32,000 bases of DNA from Desulfotalea psychrophila LSv54 (GCF_000025945.1 NC_006138.1:3420001-3452000), one strand, 5' to 3'; shown: positions 6,028-29,364, counted from the stretch's first letter. Made by a program: numbers and translations. Notes: generated from the sequence alone by a model not told the origin.

Positions 6028-8514
6028 CTACATATTTTCGTGAGCGGTACGTCTGATCAGATCGTTCTGAAGATCTTTAGAGAGATCACAGAAGTAAGCA
6101 GAATATCCTGCAATACGAACGATCAGGGTACGATATGCTTCTGGATTCTCTTGAGCAAGTCTCAAGGTCTCAGCGTTAACAACGTTGAACTGAATGTGCC
6201 ACAAACGAAGATCACAGAAGGTACGAATGAAATGTACCAACTTCTGAGTTCCTTCCTCACCTTGAACACACTTAGGTGTGAACTTGATGTTCACAAGACG
6301 AGCTGCACGCTCACGGTGGTTGAAGTTTTTAGAGGTGTAGTTAGAGAGAAGAACCGCAGTAGGTCCGTTCTTATCAGCACCGTGAGAAGCAGAAGAACCA
6401 TCGGAAAGAGAGGTTCCTGCATAACGTCCGTTAGGAGTTGCACATACCACTTTACCAAAAGGTACGTGGGAGGTGAATGGTACATAACGAAGATCAAGGA
6501 ATACGCCAAGCTCACGCTGATACTTCTCAGCATAACCTACACAGAGCTGATCAAGATCACGAGCAATTGAATCTGCATATGGATCGTTATTACCGAAACA
6601 TGGAGCAGTCATCATAAGGGCACGGAGATCTTCCTGGCCTTCGAAGTTGTTCTTCATAGCTTCAAGAACTTCAGTCATGGTGACTTTCTTCTCTTCGAAT
6701 ACGAACTTCTTGATTGCGCTCATTGAGTCAACAAGAGTACCAACACCCATGAACTCAAAGTAACCAAGGTCAATTCCCTCAGGAATATATGGTTGGTGAA
6801 TATCAATGCAATGCTTCATGGCAAGATCATGAAGCGCAGAACCCATAGGTGCAGCAAAATGACGAGCACGGGTCTTGATTACATAGTACTGCTGTTCGAA
6901 AGCAATCTTAAGGAAGTTGATGTGCTGAGCTTTGTAAGCATTCCAGAACTCTTCCCAGGTCTCCATCTTGGTTACATCACCAGTCTCGATGGAAAGTTGA
7001 GCATCACCGAACTTAAGCATTTTACCGTTGAAGAATACAGACTCAAGGGCAGCTACAAAGTTGATGTAACAACCACCAGCTGTGTAGGTATCACGGTTTG
7101 GCATACGAATCTCAGCACAACCAGATACTGAATAGTCGTAAATCTCTTCGAACTTAGCACCTTTTGCAAGGTGAAGTGGAATTACTTCCTCATCATTGAT
7201 CAGTTTAGGGAAACCAGAACCTTCTTTAATGGTCTCTGCAACTTCTGCAAGGAAACGCTCAGGAGCACGAGCGTGAATACGAGCAGCAAGATCAGGGTAG
7301 TGATGAGGGAACTCACGCTTAGAACGAAGGAAGAGATAAGTCAACTCGTTGGTTGCATCAAGACCATCTGGGGTCTGACCACCGATGGTTACTGCTTCCC
7401 AATGAGCATAGCCTTCGTTGAAAGCACCACCGGTAGGGGAGATATAGAGATCGATATACTGAGCCATACCTACATACATAAGCTCAACGTACTCAATAGC
7501 CTGGTCATCGGTGAGAATACCAGCTTCAATATCTTGCTTGTAGAATGGATAGAGGTACTGATCCATACGACCGTTGGAGATAATGGTACCAGTTTTCTGC
7601 TCAAGACGAGAGAACATCTGAGTGAACCACTGAGATTGACATGCTTCGTAGAAGGTACGAGCTGGATGCTCAGGTACGTGGTTACATACCTCAGCCATCT
7701 TGAGAAGTTCTGCCTTACGAACAGGATCAGCACATTTCTCTGCAAGTTCCATGGCAAGTGCAGCGTGACGCTTAGCCCAAACAATAACAGCTTCACATAC
7801 GAGAATAGCTGCCTGAAGGAAAGGCTTCTTGTCTACGTTGTCACCAGGAGAGAGAGGGTCAAGAGCTTCAAGCTGAACTGTAAACTCGTCACGAAGTCCA
7901 CCGAAACCACGCTTCAATACTTTATCGAAGTCATGTACCCACTGATTAGAAGAACGAAAAGAAGCGGTCTCGTTTACGATGAAACGTGAAACCATTCCAT
8001 CTGGATCATCATAGGTAAGTGCGTGTACGTCTGCTGGAAGGGTTTTAGCAAGAGTCTCGTGATAAGTCTTACCTTTCCAGTAAGGAGCAATCTCTTTAAC
8101 AACGATATCTGCATCTGCTTGAGAGATGGAGAAAGGAGAGTTGTCACGGGTAGGAAGATCAACTACCGCAGTATCAAGAAAGTCACCATCAAGCTCTGGG
8201 TAGAGAACACCATAACGTCCCTGGTATCCGATACGACCGGCAAGAAGCTGATCGTCATCGATGTATACAGTCATGTTCTCTGCACACTTCATAAGAGATT
8301 TTGCCCAACGAAGGTTAAGATGCTGACCTTCTGTCTCTTGCATACCTTGGGTGAAATAAAGAGCACGCTCTATATCAATTTGTGGCTTAGCAGTTTCAAT
8401 TTTATCAAGGATTTTGAAAACACGCTCGTGGGTTGCACGGAACTTGTTTACTTTTCCTGCGGCCTTGTCCATGATCATTTGCTCATGTGGAGAGCGACAA
8501 CATTCTACAGACAT
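6028..8514 (-). CDS. islA: Glycyl radical enzyme, sulfonate-cleaving type; best guess is isethionate sulfite-lyase (IslA/IseG-like), with HpsG/HpfG-type DHPS enzymes as alternatives
   Basis: 828 aa. The Gly-radical motif is [10 protein letters not shown] (G803) and the Cys loop is SVSGCAE (C466, E468). R187 and Q191 (FRSSNQW) and R676 (LDLRYVPF) each sit 2 residues below the IslA residues I recall (R189, Q193, C468, E470, R678, G805). There is a strong RBS (AAGGAG) 7 nt before ATG 8514. GRE family confidence is ~0.97; the isethionate-specific call is ~0.55. Confidence 0.85.
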
Positions 8515-8776: not shown

Positions 8777-8819
8777 GTTGCTTTTTTGCAACATGGCACT
8801 TTTGTTGCACAGCTGCACA
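8777..8819 (+). promoter_or_regulatory. Two copies of the repeated motif GTTGC-N6-GCA(C/A); candidate activator (UAS) sites
   Basis: GTTGCTTTTTTGCAAC (8777-8792, a perfect palindrome) and GTTGCACAGCTGCACA (8804-8819). They lie ~180-230 nt upstream of the GRE sigma-54 promoter. The same motif recurs at 15857, 15972, 22786, 22891 and 22970. Confidence 0.5.
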
Positions 8820-24281: not shown

Positions 24282-24330
24282 TTACCAGGATCCACCCAGA
24301 GGCCCAAACCTCTAACAGAAAGACAAAAAA

Positions 24331-24368
24331 GGCGTGCGTTTCTCTCCTCAGAGAATCACGCCTTTTTT
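24331..24368 (+). terminator. Rho-independent terminator after the amidohydrolase-fold gene
   Basis: GGCGTGCGTTTCTC-loop-GAGAATCACGCC followed by T6. Confidence 0.8.
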
Positions 24369-24838
24369 ATTGCTCTGCAAACTCCATGTACCAGCAAGGC
24401 CAGGACAAAAAATATATATCAATATTTTTTATCTCCTTTTAAACTTTTTTTGGAGTATTGCTATTTCAACTTGCTCCTTATAATTACAAAGAAAGATCTG
24501 TTTTTAAATTTTACCGGTTGGTTAGGAACTATTTTTTCCTGCCAAAATAGCCGCCGAAATAGTTTGACAGAAAGCAAAATTTCCATTCTATGTATCAGCA
24601 TATTACACAAGAATGTACTAATGGCTTTCTCTCACCTTAGAGAAGATGGAGTATGCCAAATATAGATTTAACAAAAATGAAGTATGCTAATTAATAATTT
24701 TGACCAAACGATTTTTTTTAGGAGGTTTGCCACAAACTATATCACGTAATCAGCTGCCGCCCCATCACCCAGTAGAAAGTCGCAGCTGCAAGAGCAAAGA
24801 GAGCACAAAAGATATTTATTGAAAAGAGAGGTAGAAAA

Positions 24839-25651
24839 ATGCAAGTCATCGCTTGTATTAAGCAGGTACCTGATACAACTCAGGTAAAAATTGACCCAGT
24901 GACCAATACCCTCGTTCGTGAAGGTATTCCCTTTATCGTCAATCCCTATGACACCCATGCTCTTGAGGCCGCACTGGATCTCAAAGATAAGTATGGGGTT
25001 AGCGTGACCGTGGTCACCATGGGCCCACCGAATTCGGCAAACGCCCTGAAGAAGGCCCTGGCCATGGGAGCTGATCGTGCCATTCTCTTGTCCGATCGCG
25101 CCTTTGGTGGTGCCGACACCCTGGCCACCAGTAAGGTTATCACAGCAGCTCTTGCCAAACTACAGGGAGAGGAAGAAATCGGCCTCATCTTCTGTGGTAA
25201 GCAGACCATTGACGGCGACACAGCTCAGGTAGGACCCGGCATTGCATCTCGAATGAAAATCCCTCAACTCACCTTGGTTGATAACGTAGAAGAGTTCACT
25301 CCTGCAAGCAAAAAAATCCGCGTGCGCAGAAAGCTTGAAGGACGCTACGAAAGAGTTGAATCAAAAATGCCTGCCCTGGTCACCGTTGTTCGCGAGATCA
25401 ACAGCCCACGCTACCCCACCGTTCCTACCCGCCTCAAGTCGTTTAATGCCCCAATTGAAACCTGGGATAACAGCGACCTTAAAATCGACCCTGAAACCAT
25501 CGGTCTCAAAGGCTCTGCCACCTGGGTAAGCAAGATTTTCAGCCCAGAGAGAGAGAAGGGAGAAATTGTAGGAGATGGAATCAATGCTCCACAAGAGGCA
25601 GCTGCACAGCTTATCGATAAACTTTTGAGCAAAGATGTGCTCTCGTTCTAG
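24839..25651 (+). CDS. etfB: Electron transfer flavoprotein beta subunit
   Basis: 270 aa. MQVIACIKQVPDTTQVKIDP..., NPYDTHALEAAL and CGKQTIDGDTAQVGP are typical of EtfB/FixA. Confidence 0.93.
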   Translation: MQVIACIKQVPDTTQVKIDPVTNTLVREGIPFIVNPYDTHALEAALDLKDKYGVSVTVVTMGPPNSANALKKALAMGADRAILLSDRAFGGADTLATSKVITAALAKLQGEEEIGLIFCGKQTIDGDTAQVGPGIASRMKIPQLTLVDNVEEFTPASKKIRVRRKLEGRYERVESKMPALVTVVREINSPRYPTVPTRLKSFNAPIETWDNSDLKIDPETIGLKGSATWVSKIFSPEREKGEIVGDGINAPQEAAAQLIDKLLSKDVLSF

Positions 25652-25662
25652 AGGAAAAAGTT

Positions 25663-26973
25663 ATGACAAAGAAAGTAAAGCGACCAAGAGGTAAAGCTCA
25701 ACTCCTTGAGGGAAAATGTATCAGCTGTGGTGGACGCTGCGAAAGCTCGTGTCCCGTTGCATGTATCACCATGAGCGATGCTGGCGAGCCACAAATTAAT
25801 ACAGCAAAGTGCATAGGCTGTAAAAAATGTGTCAAGGCCTGTCCCGGAGAAGCACTCGAGATATTCTTCACCCCTGAAGAACTTGCCATCCTGAAAGAAC
25901 TCGGAGCTGATACCACGGTAGTAGAACCCACTCCGGAAGAGAAGGCTATTGCCGAGCGTAACGCTCAGTATAAAAACGTATGGGTTCTTGTCGAGCAAAC
26001 CGAAGGCATAGTCGCCGAGGTCTCTTGGGAGCTTCTTGGCGAAGGACGAAAGCTTGCCAATAAACGCGGCTCTGAAGTTTGTGCCCTTATTATTGGTGCT
26101 GGCGTTCGTAATATCTGCGCTGACGCCTTTCACTATGGCGCCGATAAGTGCTACCTCATCGACAACCCTGTTTTTAAAGAGTACCGCACCGAGCCCTATT
26201 TCCGTGCCTGTTGCGACATGATTCATAAGCATAAGCCAGAAATCGTTCTCATGGGAGCCACCGGCCTTGGTCGCGATCTGGCCGGAGCGGTTGCCACAGA
26301 GCTACAAACCGGGCTTACCGCCGACTGTACCGAACTGGACATCGATCCAAAGGGTAATCTGATGCAGACCCGCCCAGCCTTTGGCGGCAACATCATGGCA
26401 ACCATTATGTGCGACAAGTTTCGTCCACAGATGTCCACTGTTCGCCCCAAGGTTATGCAACTTGCCCCGATATCAGAAAACCCCAAATCTGAAATCATCG
26501 AAGAGACGGTTGATATCCCTGCCACAAGCATCATGACCAAAGTTCTTGAGATTATTCGCGAGAAAAAAGGTAGCAGCGATATCGATATCTCCAGCACAGA
26601 ATTTATCGTAGCTGGTGGTCGTGGCATGATGAGCAAGGAAAATTTTTCCATCCTCAACGAACTCGCCGATGAACTTGGTGCTGTAGTTGCTGGATCACGA
26701 ATGGCTGTCGATGCGGGTTGGGTTTCCCACACCAGACAAGTTGGTCAAACGGGCAAAACAGTTCGACCTGTTGTTTATATCGCCGTCGGTATTTCAGGCG
26801 CTATTCAACACATGGTTGGTATGCAAGACTCTGATATGATCATTGCCGTCAACAAAGATAAGGATGCACCAATCTTTGAAGTAGCAAACTACGGTATCGT
26901 CGGCGACCTCTTTGAGGTGGTTCCGGCTATGACCAAAAAGATTCGCGAGGCCAAGGCCTCTGCACAACACTAA
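25663..26973 (+). CDS. etfA: Electron transfer flavoprotein alpha subunit with N-terminal 2x[4Fe-4S] ferredoxin domain
   Basis: 436 aa. CISCGGRCESSCP and CIGCKKCVKACP are followed by an EtfA/FixB body (IVAGGRGM, SRMAVDAGW, VGQTGKTVRP..YIAVGISGAIQH). Confidence 0.92.
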   Translation: MTKKVKRPRGKAQLLEGKCISCGGRCESSCPVACITMSDAGEPQINTAKCIGCKKCVKACPGEALEIFFTPEELAILKELGADTTVVEPTPEEKAIAERNAQYKNVWVLVEQTEGIVAEVSWELLGEGRKLANKRGSEVCALIIGAGVRNICADAFHYGADKCYLIDNPVFKEYRTEPYFRACCDMIHKHKPEIVLMGATGLGRDLAGAVATELQTGLTADCTELDIDPKGNLMQTRPAFGGNIMATIMCDKFRPQMSTVRPKVMQLAPISENPKSEIIEETVDIPATSIMTKVLEIIREKKGSSDIDISSTEFIVAGGRGMMSKENFSILNELADELGAVVAGSRMAVDAGWVSHTRQVGQTGKTVRPVVYIAVGISGAIQHMVGMQDSDMIIAVNKDKDAPIFEVANYGIVGDLFEVVPAMTKKIREAKASAQH

Positions 26974-26997
26974 TCATTTTGGAAGGATTTACAGATT

Positions 26998-28947
26998 ATG
27001 CATATTAGCCCAATGATATTCACCCCAATACTGATCGCCTCTCTGCTTCTTTTTGCCTACGGCCTACGGTCACGTCTTAAACTGGCAGCCATGGGTAAGG
27101 CTGAAGATCGATCTGATATGATGGCACAACGAATAGCCATGATGTTCAACATAGCCTTCTTGCAAAAGAAAGTGCTAGGTGGCAGTTTCGGCCTGAATCA
27201 CTTTTTCATCTTTTGGACCTTTATTCTCCTCGCCCTCGCCAATGGTGAGTTTTTGGTAGCTGGCGTTTTTCCCGCTCTCACCTTCAAAGCACTTCCTCAG
27301 GGAATCTTCTCTCCACTGATGTTCGTCTTTGATGTTGTTTCTACCATCTGCCTTATCGCAATTGCTTCGGGAATTATCCGCCGCATCATCGCCCCACCAT
27401 ACAAAGAGGCTCGTACCGCTGAGGCCTTTGGCATTCTCGCCGTTATCGGTGGCCTAATGCTTGCCTACTTCGGCGTCCATGCAGCAGAGCTTGCCCTTGG
27501 TGAAATCAAGGCATCAATGCCTGTTTCCGGCGCTATCGCCTCTATGCTCAGCAATATGGCACCAGCTTCCATTGCCAGCTTTGGCCAGACAGCATGGTGG
27601 ATTCACGCCTTTCTTATCCTAGGCCTGATGAACTACCTGCCCTTTGGCAAGCACATGCACATCATCACCGCCATCCCCAACTGTCTTTTCGGGGCAATCG
27701 ACAAGGTTAACACTGTACCCCGTGAAGAATTTGCTGAGAATAACAGCTATGGCGTACAGGAAGCAAATGACTTCACCTGGAAAGACATTATCGACTCTTT
27801 CACCTGTACCGAGTGTGGCCGTTGCCAGAAGGTATGTCCTGCCACCCTCACCGACAAAGAGTTGGTACCACGTACCCTTATTGAGCAGATCAAGTACAAT
27901 TTGATCGCCAATCAAGCAGAGCTCAAGGCCGGCAAGCCTGTCTCCTACAACCTTATTGGCGACGGCGAAAAGAGCATCAGCAAAGAGGCTATCTGGTCTT
28001 GCCTTACCTGTGGGGCATGCATGCAACAGTGCCCTGTTCTTATTGAGCATGTGCCCAAGATTATCAAGATGCGTCGTCACCTGGTTCAGATGGAGTCCGA
28101 TTTCCCTGAAGAACTGTTAAGCCTTTTCGAAAACATGGAGCAACGTAGCAATCCATGGGGCATGGCACCATCTGATCGTAGTAAATGGGTTGGTGAGCTT
28201 GAAGTGCCAATGTTTGACGAATCCAAAGAGTATCTCTTCTATGTTGGTTGCTCCGGATCCTTCGATGCTCGAGCTCGTCAGGTAACAACCTCCATGGTCA
28301 AAATCCTCAATGCAGCTGGAATCTCCTACGGCATCCTCGGCAAAGATGAGCTCTGCTGTGGAGACAGTGTCCGTCGACTCGGTAACGAGTATGTCTTTGA
28401 TCAAATGGCACAGCAAAACACTGACCTCTTCAAGAAGCTTGGAGTTAAAAAGATCATCACCGCCTGTCCACACTGTTTTACCACCGTCCTCAACGACTAT
28501 AAGCAGTATGGCCTGGAGATCGAAGTTACTCACCACACCACCTTCATCAACAAGCTCATTGCTGAGAAGAAGCTTGCCCTGAATAACACAGAGATGAAAG
28601 GCAAGAATATTGTCTACCATGACTCCTGTTATCTCGGTCGCCACAATGGTATCTACGACGCTCCACGAAACGTCATCACCAGCATCACCCAAAAAGCTCC
28701 AATTGAAATGGAGAAGAACCGTGAGAACGCATTCTGCTGTGGTGCAGGTGGCGGTCGCATGTGGCTTGAAGAACGTACCGAAAAGCGAGTAAATGTTGAA
28801 CGTACCAAACAGGCCCTTGAGACCAATGCTGATTGTATCACCGTTGGCTGTCCATTCTGCCTGACTATGTTTGAAGATGGTGCCAAGGATCTTGGCGCCG
28901 AGGTTCCTGTAAAGGATATTGCCGAGGTAGTTGCCGCAGCACTGTAA
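26998..28947 (+). CDS. Membrane-anchored Fe-S oxidoreductase (HdrD/DsrK-like CCG domains fused to a polytopic His-rich membrane domain); Etf-associated quinone oxidoreductase type
   Basis: 649 aa. The N-terminal ~230 aa are hydrophobic, with several predicted TM helices and conserved His. Ferredoxin motifs are CTECGRCQKVCP and CLTCGACMQQCP. There are two CCG-type Cys-rich regions (CCGDS...CPHCF and CCGAGGG...CPFC). It is co-directional with and 24 nt downstream of etfA. Confidence 0.85.
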   Translation: MHISPMIFTPILIASLLLFAYGLRSRLKLAAMGKAEDRSDMMAQRIAMMFNIAFLQKKVLGGSFGLNHFFIFWTFILLALANGEFLVAGVFPALTFKALPQGIFSPLMFVFDVVSTICLIAIASGIIRRIIAPPYKEARTAEAFGILAVIGGLMLAYFGVHAAELALGEIKASMPVSGAIASMLSNMAPASIASFGQTAWWIHAFLILGLMNYLPFGKHMHIITAIPNCLFGAIDKVNTVPREEFAENNSYGVQEANDFTWKDIIDSFTCTECGRCQKVCPATLTDKELVPRTLIEQIKYNLIANQAELKAGKPVSYNLIGDGEKSISKEAIWSCLTCGACMQQCPVLIEHVPKIIKMRRHLVQMESDFPEELLSLFENMEQRSNPWGMAPSDRSKWVGELEVPMFDESKEYLFYVGCSGSFDARARQVTTSMVKILNAAGISYGILGKDELCCGDSVRRLGNEYVFDQMAQQNTDLFKKLGVKKIITACPHCFTTVLNDYKQYGLEIEVTHHTTFINKLIAEKKLALNNTEMKGKNIVYHDSCYLGRHNGIYDAPRNVITSITQKAPIEMEKNRENAFCCGAGGGRMWLEERTEKRVNVERTKQALETNADCITVGCPFCLTMFEDGAKDLGAEVPVKDIAEVVAAAL

Positions 28948-28973
28948 GAACCAAGCTGGACCGAAGAACAAAA

Positions 28974-29006
28974 AGCCCATACTGCTCTGCAGTATGGGCT
29001 TTTTTT
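28974..29006 (+). terminator. Rho-independent terminator of the etf operon
   Basis: AGCCCATACTGC-tct-GCAGTATGGGCT followed by T6. Confidence 0.85.
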
Positions 29007-29364
29007 ATGCACACCAAAGCAGCAAGCAGTAACTTTGACCAGAAAGCAAAGGACCGCCCCCCCCAGAACATCAAATTAATGGGCTAAGCTCACTACCCTC
29101 CAAGCGTAACCAAACAGATCCATGGATTGTACCGCTATCCCCCCACATGATCAGTGATGGCCCTTTAACGGCTTTCGGCACTCAAGGTGAACTAAAGAAC
29201 TGTGGATGATTCATAGGCTTACCTTACATGGAACAGAGAAGGAAACAAGCCAACAGAGAGCCACACTGTTAGCGGGCAATGCTTTAGCCAAAACACCTTC
29301 CACAACAGAACCTCTCTATCAAGGTCAATCCTGACAAACTGGCCTGGCCATCATGCCGGACAAA

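Follow-up and report, generated by a model that had tools for sequence, protein, structure and literature searches.

A ferredoxin-fused Etf and membrane oxidoreductase operon of Desulfotalea psychrophila as a candidate NADH/ferredoxin:menaquinone module

Introduction

Delivery of electrons from an electron transfer flavoprotein (Etf) to the quinone pool by a membrane-bound iron-sulfur (FeS) oxidoreductase has been described for the EMO protein of Syntrophus aciditrophicus (SYN_02638), which reduces (methyl)menaquinone and is linked to growth on fatty acids (bioRxiv 10.64898/2026.08.18.745454), and for mycobacterial EtfD (Rv0338c / MSMEG_0690; structure 9OJN), the ETF:menaquinone oxidoreductase of beta-oxidation (PMC13083937). 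A module of similar make-up is known from Geobacter. G. sulfurreducens has a single etf pair and no acyl-CoA dehydrogenase (ACAD) (PMC2700814), and its GSU2795-97 genes are essential in transposon sequencing (Tn-seq), are reported to have the full set of signature residues for confurcation-bifurcation complexes, and have been proposed to act in bifurcation or confurcation between ferredoxin, NADH and quinone (PMC5585712). Here we describe a three-gene etf operon at positions 24839-28947 of a 32,000-nucleotide stretch of the Desulfotalea psychrophila LSv54 genome (GCF_000025945.1, NC_006138.1:3420001-3452000; hereafter the window), where it lies beside two bacterial microcompartment (BMC) loci. 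We lean, with moderate confidence, towards reading this operon as a self-sufficient, partner-free and Fix-like NADH/ferredoxin:menaquinone module of the Geobacter type that was acquired laterally.

Two further systems bear on this reading. FixABCX/EtfABCX of Thermotoga maritima (7KOE) contains a bifurcating Etf that passes electrons from NADH to quinone and ferredoxin and has no substrate dehydrogenase, and CarCDE of Acetobacterium woodii (6FAH) is a soluble complex in which a bifurcating Etf, with a two-cluster ferredoxin domain at the N-terminus of CarE, serves the ACAD-like reductase CarC.

Results

Architecture of the etf operon

The operon and its borders comprise the following features, with positions counted from the first nucleotide of the window.

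24839-25651, plus strand: etfB, 270 aa (Pfam ETF 149.6 bits; NCBIfam EtfB 298 bits)
25663-26973, plus strand: etfA, 436 aa (ETF 159.5 bits and ETF_alpha 121.5 bits; Fer4 families at residues 13-67)
25699-25863, plus strand: 2x[4Fe-4S] ferredoxin-like domain of EtfA, residues 13-67 (Fer4 families, two cysteine motifs)
26998-28947, plus strand: gene of the EMO/EtfD family, 649 aa (two CCG domains, 133 bits; Fer4 dicluster families at residues 263-347)
26998-27747, plus strand: predicted membrane domain of the EMO/EtfD protein, residues 1-250, NarI-like cytochrome b (hydrophobic segments, histidine alignment)
27784-28038, plus strand: two-cluster Fer4 domain of the EMO/EtfD protein (Fer4_9/10/8/17 families, cysteine motifs)
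28249-28872, plus strand: HdrB-like pair of CCG domains, for a non-cubane cluster (Pfam CCG, two stretches, 133 bits)
28970-29008, plus strand: intrinsic terminator of the etf operon (perfect stem-loop, then a U run; dG -24.7 kcal/mol, z -7.55)
24325-24368: terminator of the upstream amidohydrolase gene (dG -21.7, z -6.5)
24282-24838, plus strand: region upstream of etfB (promoter not identified)

The three genes are separated by gaps of only 11 nt (etfB-etfA) and 24 nt (etfA-EMO), and none of 200 shuffled sequences folded as well as the stem-loop at 28970-29008. Because this terminator and the one at 24325-24368 lie at either end, the operon is insulated on each side. A preliminary description, made from the DNA of the window, had proposed a self-contained three-gene operon with its own terminator that encodes EtfB, an EtfA whose N-terminus carries a 2x[4Fe-4S] domain, and a fusion of a polytopic, His-rich membrane domain to HdrD/DsrK-like CCG domains. 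All three reading frames and the terminator were recovered, both Etf subunits were borne out by family matches and by the two four-cysteine motifs, and the fusion was supported by a hydrophobic N-terminus and two CCG domains; the label "His-rich" proved wrong, however, as there are 6 histidines in 260 residues.

The Etf is of the bifurcating type

Both subunits were scored against five solved bifurcating Etfs (CarDE, the C. difficile Etf, FixAB, the Acidaminococcus Etf and LctBC) and against the non-bifurcating Etfs of human, Paracoccus, Methylophilus and G. metallireducens, revealing scores that were 2-5x higher with all five bifurcating Etfs than with the non-bifurcating ones. For EtfB the scores ranged from 167 to 240 bits with the bifurcating set and from 50 to 99 bits with the non-bifurcating set, and for EtfA from 268 to 388 bits versus 130 to 169 bits (143 to 169 bits for full-length chains). 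Specifically, the best PDB matches of EtfB were CarD (6FAH, 240 bits), 5OL2 (230 bits), FixA (7KOE, 228 bits) and 4KPU (205 bits), compared with 98.6 bits for human 1EFV and 49.9 bits for G. metallireducens 5OW0. Those of EtfA were CarE (6FAH, 388 bits) and 7KOE (332 bits), compared with 168.5 bits for 1EFV and 142.9 bits for 5OW0. LctBC (7QH2) scored lowest of the five bifurcating Etfs, at 167 bits with EtfB and 268 bits with EtfA.

CarCDE is thus the nearest structural relative of both subunits, and the ferredoxin domain of EtfA, with cysteines C19-x2-C22-x3-C26-x3-C30 and C50-x2-C53-x2-C56-x3-C60, matches its counterpart in CarE; unlike in CarCDE, however, there is no counterpart of CarC here and a membrane protein completes the set. 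The operon likewise differs from FixABCX in having neither a FixC-type flavoprotein quinone reductase nor a separate FixX, with EMO and the fused ferredoxin domain instead. At the residue level, Asp93 of EtfB and Arg146 and Ile157 of EtfA (Acidaminococcus numbering) are nearly invariant in bifurcating Etfs (PMC10279923). In a comparison confined to bifurcating Etfs, EtfB was found to keep D93 in a G-A-D-T motif at the site of the bifurcating flavin, and EtfA to keep the motif T-R-P-A-F-G-G-N-I-M-A-T-I, which aligns with R146/I157 of 4KPU. Judged by these similarities, the Etf of the window is of the bifurcating type (group 2), which the preliminary description had not recognised, and an Etf of this type would therefore not need a dehydrogenase partner. 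By homology, it most likely uses NADH and ferredoxin and bifurcates electrons, with the direction of electron flow predicted on the same grounds.

The membrane protein belongs to the EMO/EtfD family and keeps all cofactor motifs

Sequence comparison identifies the 649-aa product of the third gene as a homologue of the EMO/EtfD family with a full set of cofactor motifs. Among solved proteins, its best match is M. smegmatis EtfD (9OJN, 386 bits), with a 324-bit alignment that spans residues 326-644, although the mycobacterial protein is longer (1042 aa versus 649 aa). Syntrophus EMO, mycobacterial EtfD and the window protein have the same three-domain plan, consisting of a five-helix NarI-like haem b domain, an HdrC-like two-cubane domain and an HdrB-like non-cubane domain, and in each case the gene adjoins etfBA. 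In the window protein, hydrophobic segments above the Kyte-Doolittle threshold were located at residues 3-21, 63-87, 109-131 and 143-161, together with a fifth around residues 196-216. H68 and the motif K-H-M-H-I (H219/H221) align with conserved histidines of 9OJN, while H203 is a candidate distal haem ligand that was assigned by spacing only. The membrane domain also displays weak similarity to QmoC.

The two cubane motifs consist of cysteines 270/273/276/280 and 335/338/341/345, and the two CCG sets, of the form C-x34/35-CC-x35/36-C-x2-C, are complete (418/453/454/490/493 and 544/580/581/618/621). The window protein thereby keeps all five cysteines in both CCG motifs, whereas the Syntrophus EMO is one ligand short and the M. 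smegmatis EtfD has a linear [3Fe-4S] cluster. Of the family traits, the NarI-like domain, the cluster domains and the adjacency to etfB and etfA were thus found, and what is missing is partnership with the acyl-CoA dehydrogenases of beta-oxidation, and with it the published tie to fatty-acid growth, as the host genome has no such dehydrogenase (see below). The earlier statement that an Etf with such a membrane FeS oxidoreductase passes electrons to menaquinone agrees with the published work on both described proteins (bioRxiv 10.64898/2026.08.18.745454, PMC13083937).

No dehydrogenase partner accompanies the operon

Family scans of the window and of the 19 kb to its right revealed no acyl-CoA dehydrogenase or lactate dehydrogenase gene, as the preliminary description had claimed for the window itself, and no adjacent ACAD-like or GlcD-like partner gene of the kind found in CarCDE, Bcd-Etf or LctBCD was present in the window or its flanks. 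A dehydrogenase just beyond the window was also ruled out, since the right side holds two DctP genes and a sigma-54 activator, followed by unrelated genes. Moreover, the whole host genome (3,659,634 bases in 3 contigs, the longest of 3,523,383; 100% complete) yielded zero matches to Acyl-CoA_dh_1 and Acyl-CoA_dh_M, in a search that returned matches in 9 of 14 control genomes, and this rules out an ACAD partner for the Etf.

The EtfAB pair of the window is the only complete one in the genome. Elsewhere, a second, truncated EtfA-like gene (L003:1072-1824, minus strand; genome C1 ~3152.9-3153.7 kb; 250 aa) carries ETF_alpha and half of the ETF domain, lies between FabH-like and FabG-like genes and has a weak EtfB-like match upstream; the two may form an Etf-like pair of a lipid-synthesis cluster.

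The genome further encodes four GlcD-like FAD oxidases (FAD-oxidase_C), all far from the etf operon, at least one of which (C1:1156982) adjoins CCG-domain proteins of its own. DsrK is encoded as well (716 bits; cut-off 400). A separate DsrK/HdrD-like reading frame (C1:1142076-1143128, plus strand; 123 bits) contains one in-frame TGA and may encode a selenoprotein.

Orthologous modules and their distribution

The membrane protein has thousands of homologues, and named Geobacter homologues are 55-58% identical over the full length. One of these, ABB32481.1 of G. metallireducens (55%), is annotated as an Etf-associated cytochrome b and CCG-pair oxidoreductase. On the strength of these sequence matches, and with GSU2795-97 equated through the named Geobacter proteins and the published descriptions, the window module is an orthologue of the GSU2795-97 type, a kind of module that has already been noted in Geobacter and has never been purified. 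Geobacter-type modules have the same order of etfB, ferredoxin-fused etfA and EMO, are free of a dehydrogenase gene and occur in ACAD-free genomes (PMC2700814). Unlike the essential module of G. sulfurreducens, that of the window is sited in a region that varies between strains, next to BMC loci, and is dispensable at the genus level, as a congener does without it.

Of 400 genomes sampled across the phylum, 30 encode an orthologous module, at 45-57% identity and usually in single copy, and none of these belongs to the order of the window. No orthologue was present among 120 genomes of its own family, in which the best match was 41% identical, nor in the congener (G009) or the other 12 of the 13 further sampled genomes of the order, which belong to other families, and scans of genome and metagenome contigs for further close relatives gave nothing above ~59% identity. 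In 20 orthologue neighbourhoods, the order of the three genes was constant and the flanks varied. Their EtfA proteins measure 436-465 aa and have two N-terminal cysteine motifs; both motifs of the window EtfA occur in every orthologous module examined except L105, which has two motifs of canonical spacing. Annotated neighbours that recur are housekeeping genes (GatB, an IF-2B-family protein, an aminotransferase, UvrD and glutamate dehydrogenase), and no dehydrogenase partner is among them. Four of the 30 orthologue-bearing genomes (99-100% complete) are free of ACADs, and a fifth has a weak match only.

A classical module, with a 329-aa EtfA and an EMO of 677-684 aa, stands back to back and divergent with a ferredoxin-fused one in two genomes that belong to a single family (L099:2503-10962 and L100:2885-11282). 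Because the two kinds occur side by side and the classical proteins are just 35-44% identical to those of the window, they represent separate lineages.

A quick maximum-likelihood tree placed the window module in a fully supported clade with three loci, namely its closest relative L011 (proteins 78-90% identical, intergenic DNA diverged) and L012 and L013 (68% identity). This clade nests within that of the ferredoxin-fused modules, among Geobacter-like families and Dehalococcoidia, and the EMOs of the window's family branch at a large distance from it. The position in the tree and the absence from the family fit a lateral arrival of the module in the Desulfotalea lineage.

The neighbouring microcompartment loci

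Besides the etf operon, the window encodes a glycyl-radical enzyme (GRE) and its activase, two BMC operons in tandem, and an Amidohydro_2 protein that ends in a C-terminal linker and amphipathic helix. Across the etf operon from these lie the convergent genes of a TRAP transporter, which continue past the window with two DctP genes and a PAS/sigma-54 activator. Each BMC operon encodes shell proteins, a PduS-like flavoprotein (MNdh) and a CoA-acylating aldehyde dehydrogenase, and both loci combine MNdh with a tandem-domain BMC-T that carries a CPGK cluster motif at residue 41. MNdh and BMC-T(SE) form an electron-export pair (PMC11626177) for which the acceptor outside the shell is unknown (PMC11626177, PMC8667426). 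Family scans found no alcohol dehydrogenase in the window, and together with the export pair in both loci this upholds the earlier premise that these BMCs must export electrons.

The further proposal that the etf operon is their electron outlet fared less well. BMC shell genes were found in none of the 30 orthologue-bearing genomes and, conversely, none of the 21 other BMC-bearing genomes in the same 400-genome sample has an orthologue or an etfA within 50 kb of its BMC genes on the same contig, with 4 of the 21 lacking any etfA. Co-occurrence, which had been put forward as a check, is therefore absent at phylum scale. Among 150 other loci with EMO relatives (1.6 Mb), BMC genes adjoin the module in L011 only, and none lie within 6-10 kb of the module in L012 and L013. 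L011 does keep the order BMC / EutQ / amidohydrolase / etfBA-EMO; the TRAP genes are not adjacent there.

Upstream sequence elements do not tie the operon to its neighbours either. The GRE, BMC-A, BMC-B, amidohydrolase and TRAP units each have a sigma-54 promoter in front, and exact copies of GTTGC-N6-GCA mark the BMC control regions. The region upstream of etfB (24282-24838) contains no sigma-54 -24/-12 element (TGGCAC-N5-TTGCW, with GG and GC fixed and <=3 mismatches) and no GTTGC-N6-GCA motif at <=1 mismatch, and L011 has no sigma-54 promoter upstream of etfB, so that co-regulation with the BMC regulon was rejected. A Rex box (NADH-sensing operator) was also searched upstream of etfB, and none was found. 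The sole block that this region has in common with L011 measures ~35 nt (24720-24753, plus strand), starts with A-G-G-A-G-G-T-T and lies ~90-120 nt 5' of the etfB start codon.

Neither BMC shell genes nor the amidohydrolase nor any Etf occur in the congener G009 (99% complete). A stretch of ~41 kb (genome C1 ~3415.9-3456.8 kb; window -4050 to 36840) has no counterpart there, extending from before a YcaO gene across the GRE, both BMC operons, the amidohydrolase, etf and TRAP genes and the sigma-54 activator and ending shortly before aroC, with the etf operon in its middle. Because the flanks of this stretch map to two different G009 contigs, a clean empty-site proof of an island was dismissed, and the finding stands as no counterpart over ~41 kb. 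Conserved genes of the two genomes have ~67% nucleotide identity, so the joint absence carries little weight. Etf-free BMCs of the IslA type were considered as a counter-example and set aside, since the similar GREs in the four genomes concerned do not lie beside BMC genes and the comparison is not like-for-like. Taken together, the adjacency to BMC genes is specific to the Desulfotalea lineage, a dedicated link is unproven, and a general role of the module as BMC acceptor is unlikely.

In L013, a PduS/RnfC-like flavoprotein gene (438 aa, 31% identical to the MNdh of the window) lies 2 kb from the module; together with a DHO_dh-family gene it occupies L013:862-3219 (minus strand), divergently oriented just upstream of etfB, and no BMC genes are present.

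Discussion

A possible route of electrons

In a self-sufficient module of the Geobacter type, EtfAB, with the ferredoxin domain fused to its large subunit, would dock to the EMO/EtfD membrane protein, and NADH would be oxidised at the bifurcating FAD of EtfB. The downhill electron would pass via the FAD of EtfA to the non-cubane and cubane FeS clusters, the haem(s) b and menaquinone, and the uphill electron would leave through the fused [4Fe-4S] domain to ferredoxin. The flow might also be reversed, with ferredoxin and NADH jointly reducing menaquinone. Menaquinol formed in this way would, in a sulfate reducer such as this one, feed Qmo/DsrMKJOP; because DsrK is encoded, it could indeed serve sulfite reduction, and to that extent the preliminary idea of a feed into sulfite respiration stands, although the part that had the operon acting as BMC outlet is not supported.

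Several observations weigh against this reading. The only EMO and EtfD characterised so far both pair with acyl-CoA dehydrogenases and a non-bifurcating Etf, but their partner Etf is AMP-binding and has no ferredoxin domain, whereas that of the window is of the bifurcating type, ferredoxin-fused and housed in a genome without ACAD. ACADs are present in 26 of the 30 orthologue-bearing genomes, and in those 26 an ACAD-linked role is possible. The host encodes a NuoD homologue, which may provide another route from NADH to quinone. The genus has no core requirement for the module, given that the congener is devoid of Etf, and this fits an accessory role tied to a substrate. Finally, no member of the ferredoxin-fused Etf/EMO type has been studied biochemically, and bifurcation is predicted from homology alone.

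Alternative explanations

A first rival reading makes the module the dedicated outlet of the two sulfonate-degrading (isethionate-type) BMCs. NADH from the encapsulated aldehyde dehydrogenases might then be oxidised by MNdh, and single electrons might pass via the [4Fe-4S] cluster of BMC-T(SE), directly or through a soluble ferredoxin, to the EtfA ferredoxin domain outside the shell, and on via EMO to menaquinone and sulfite reduction. The export pair in both loci, the absence of an alcohol dehydrogenase from the window, the outside acceptor yet to be named in the literature, the gene order kept in the 78%-identical L011 and the PduS/RnfC-like gene near the module in L013 all speak for such an outlet, as do the ~41-kb stretch missing from G009 and the lack of any other obvious electron donor in a genome without ACAD. 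Against it stand the absence of BMC shell genes from the 30 orthologue-bearing genomes and of the orthologue from the 21 BMC-bearing ones, the adjacency found in L011 only, the two 68% relatives that carry the module away from BMC genes, the operon's own terminators and its lack of the sigma-54 promoter and repeat motif of the five neighbouring units; the joint absence from a single, distant congener is weak evidence. We therefore regard a dedicated BMC outlet as an attractive but unlikely reading. A different donor would be a non-ACAD flavoprotein dehydrogenase encoded elsewhere, for example a D-lactate dehydrogenase-like (GlcD) FAD oxidase that feeds the Etf as in LctBCD, with menaquinone again as the acceptor. 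Lactate is a usual electron donor of sulfate reducers, four FAD-oxidase_C proteins are available, LctBC is among the good PDB matches, and L012 has lactate-utilisation genes 3-8 kb from its module. None of the four oxidases lies near the etf operon, however; that at C1:1156982, beside its own CCG proteins, displays the usual Etf-independent arrangement, no such dehydrogenase recurs in the 20 orthologue neighbourhoods, and LctBC ranks lowest of the bifurcating matches, so that a partner of this kind seems improbable.

It is harder still to see the operon as a classical beta-oxidation Etf:menaquinone oxidoreductase that was orphaned after lateral transfer and is of little or no use to the cell. 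The EMO/EtfD family is tied to fatty-acid growth (bioRxiv 10.64898/2026.08.18.745454) and most orthologue-bearing genomes do have ACADs, but all three frames are intact with complete cofactor motifs, and the conservation of the proteins between the window and L011 amid diverged intergenic DNA indicates purifying selection. Furthermore, the Etf is of the bifurcating type and not like the AMP-binding Etf of Syntrophus, the classical module forms a separate lineage, and the orthologue is essential in the ACAD-free G. sulfurreducens (PMC5585712), which makes a useless relic very improbable.

Significance

The structure of EMO/EtfD has only just been solved and was presented as the link from beta-oxidation to quinone. 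The window module and its orthologues, found in ~8% of the sampled Desulfobacterota and in some Dehalococcoidia, point to a second, distinct use of this membrane protein, with a ferredoxin-fused Etf of bifurcating type and in organisms that may lack any ACAD. Should the complex indeed be a bifurcating NADH/ferredoxin:menaquinone module, it would constitute a Fix-like energy-coupling site of anaerobic respiration that has never been purified. If, instead, it did serve the microcompartments, two isethionate-type BMCs would be connected directly to menaquinone and to sulfite respiration, and the BMC would count as an organelle of respiration rather than of fermentation. D. psychrophila offers a cultivated, tractable case in which a candidate cytoplasmic acceptor lies beside two MNdh/BMC-T(SE) BMC loci.

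Further observations on the microcompartment genes

The GRE gene (6028-8514, minus strand) matches the NCBIfam model HpsG, 'sulfopropanediol dehydratase' (1526 bits; cut-off 1000). Its closest solved relatives are isethionate sulfite-lyases (IseG 5YMR, 1361 bits; IslA 7KQ3, 1357 bits), followed by 6LON at 1177 bits. The HpsG label may thus be too broad, and isethionate is also a better fit to the aldehyde dehydrogenase and PTA genes of the BMC loci. A perfect sigma-54 consensus at 8794-8809 (plus strand) is located between the start of the GRE gene and the 3' end of BMC operon A. It overlaps GTTGC-N6-GCA repeats at 8777-8817 and is directed into the aldehyde dehydrogenase gene, antisense to it. 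A third set of BMC shell genes is located at genome C1:2058289-2064279, 1.4 Mb from the window.

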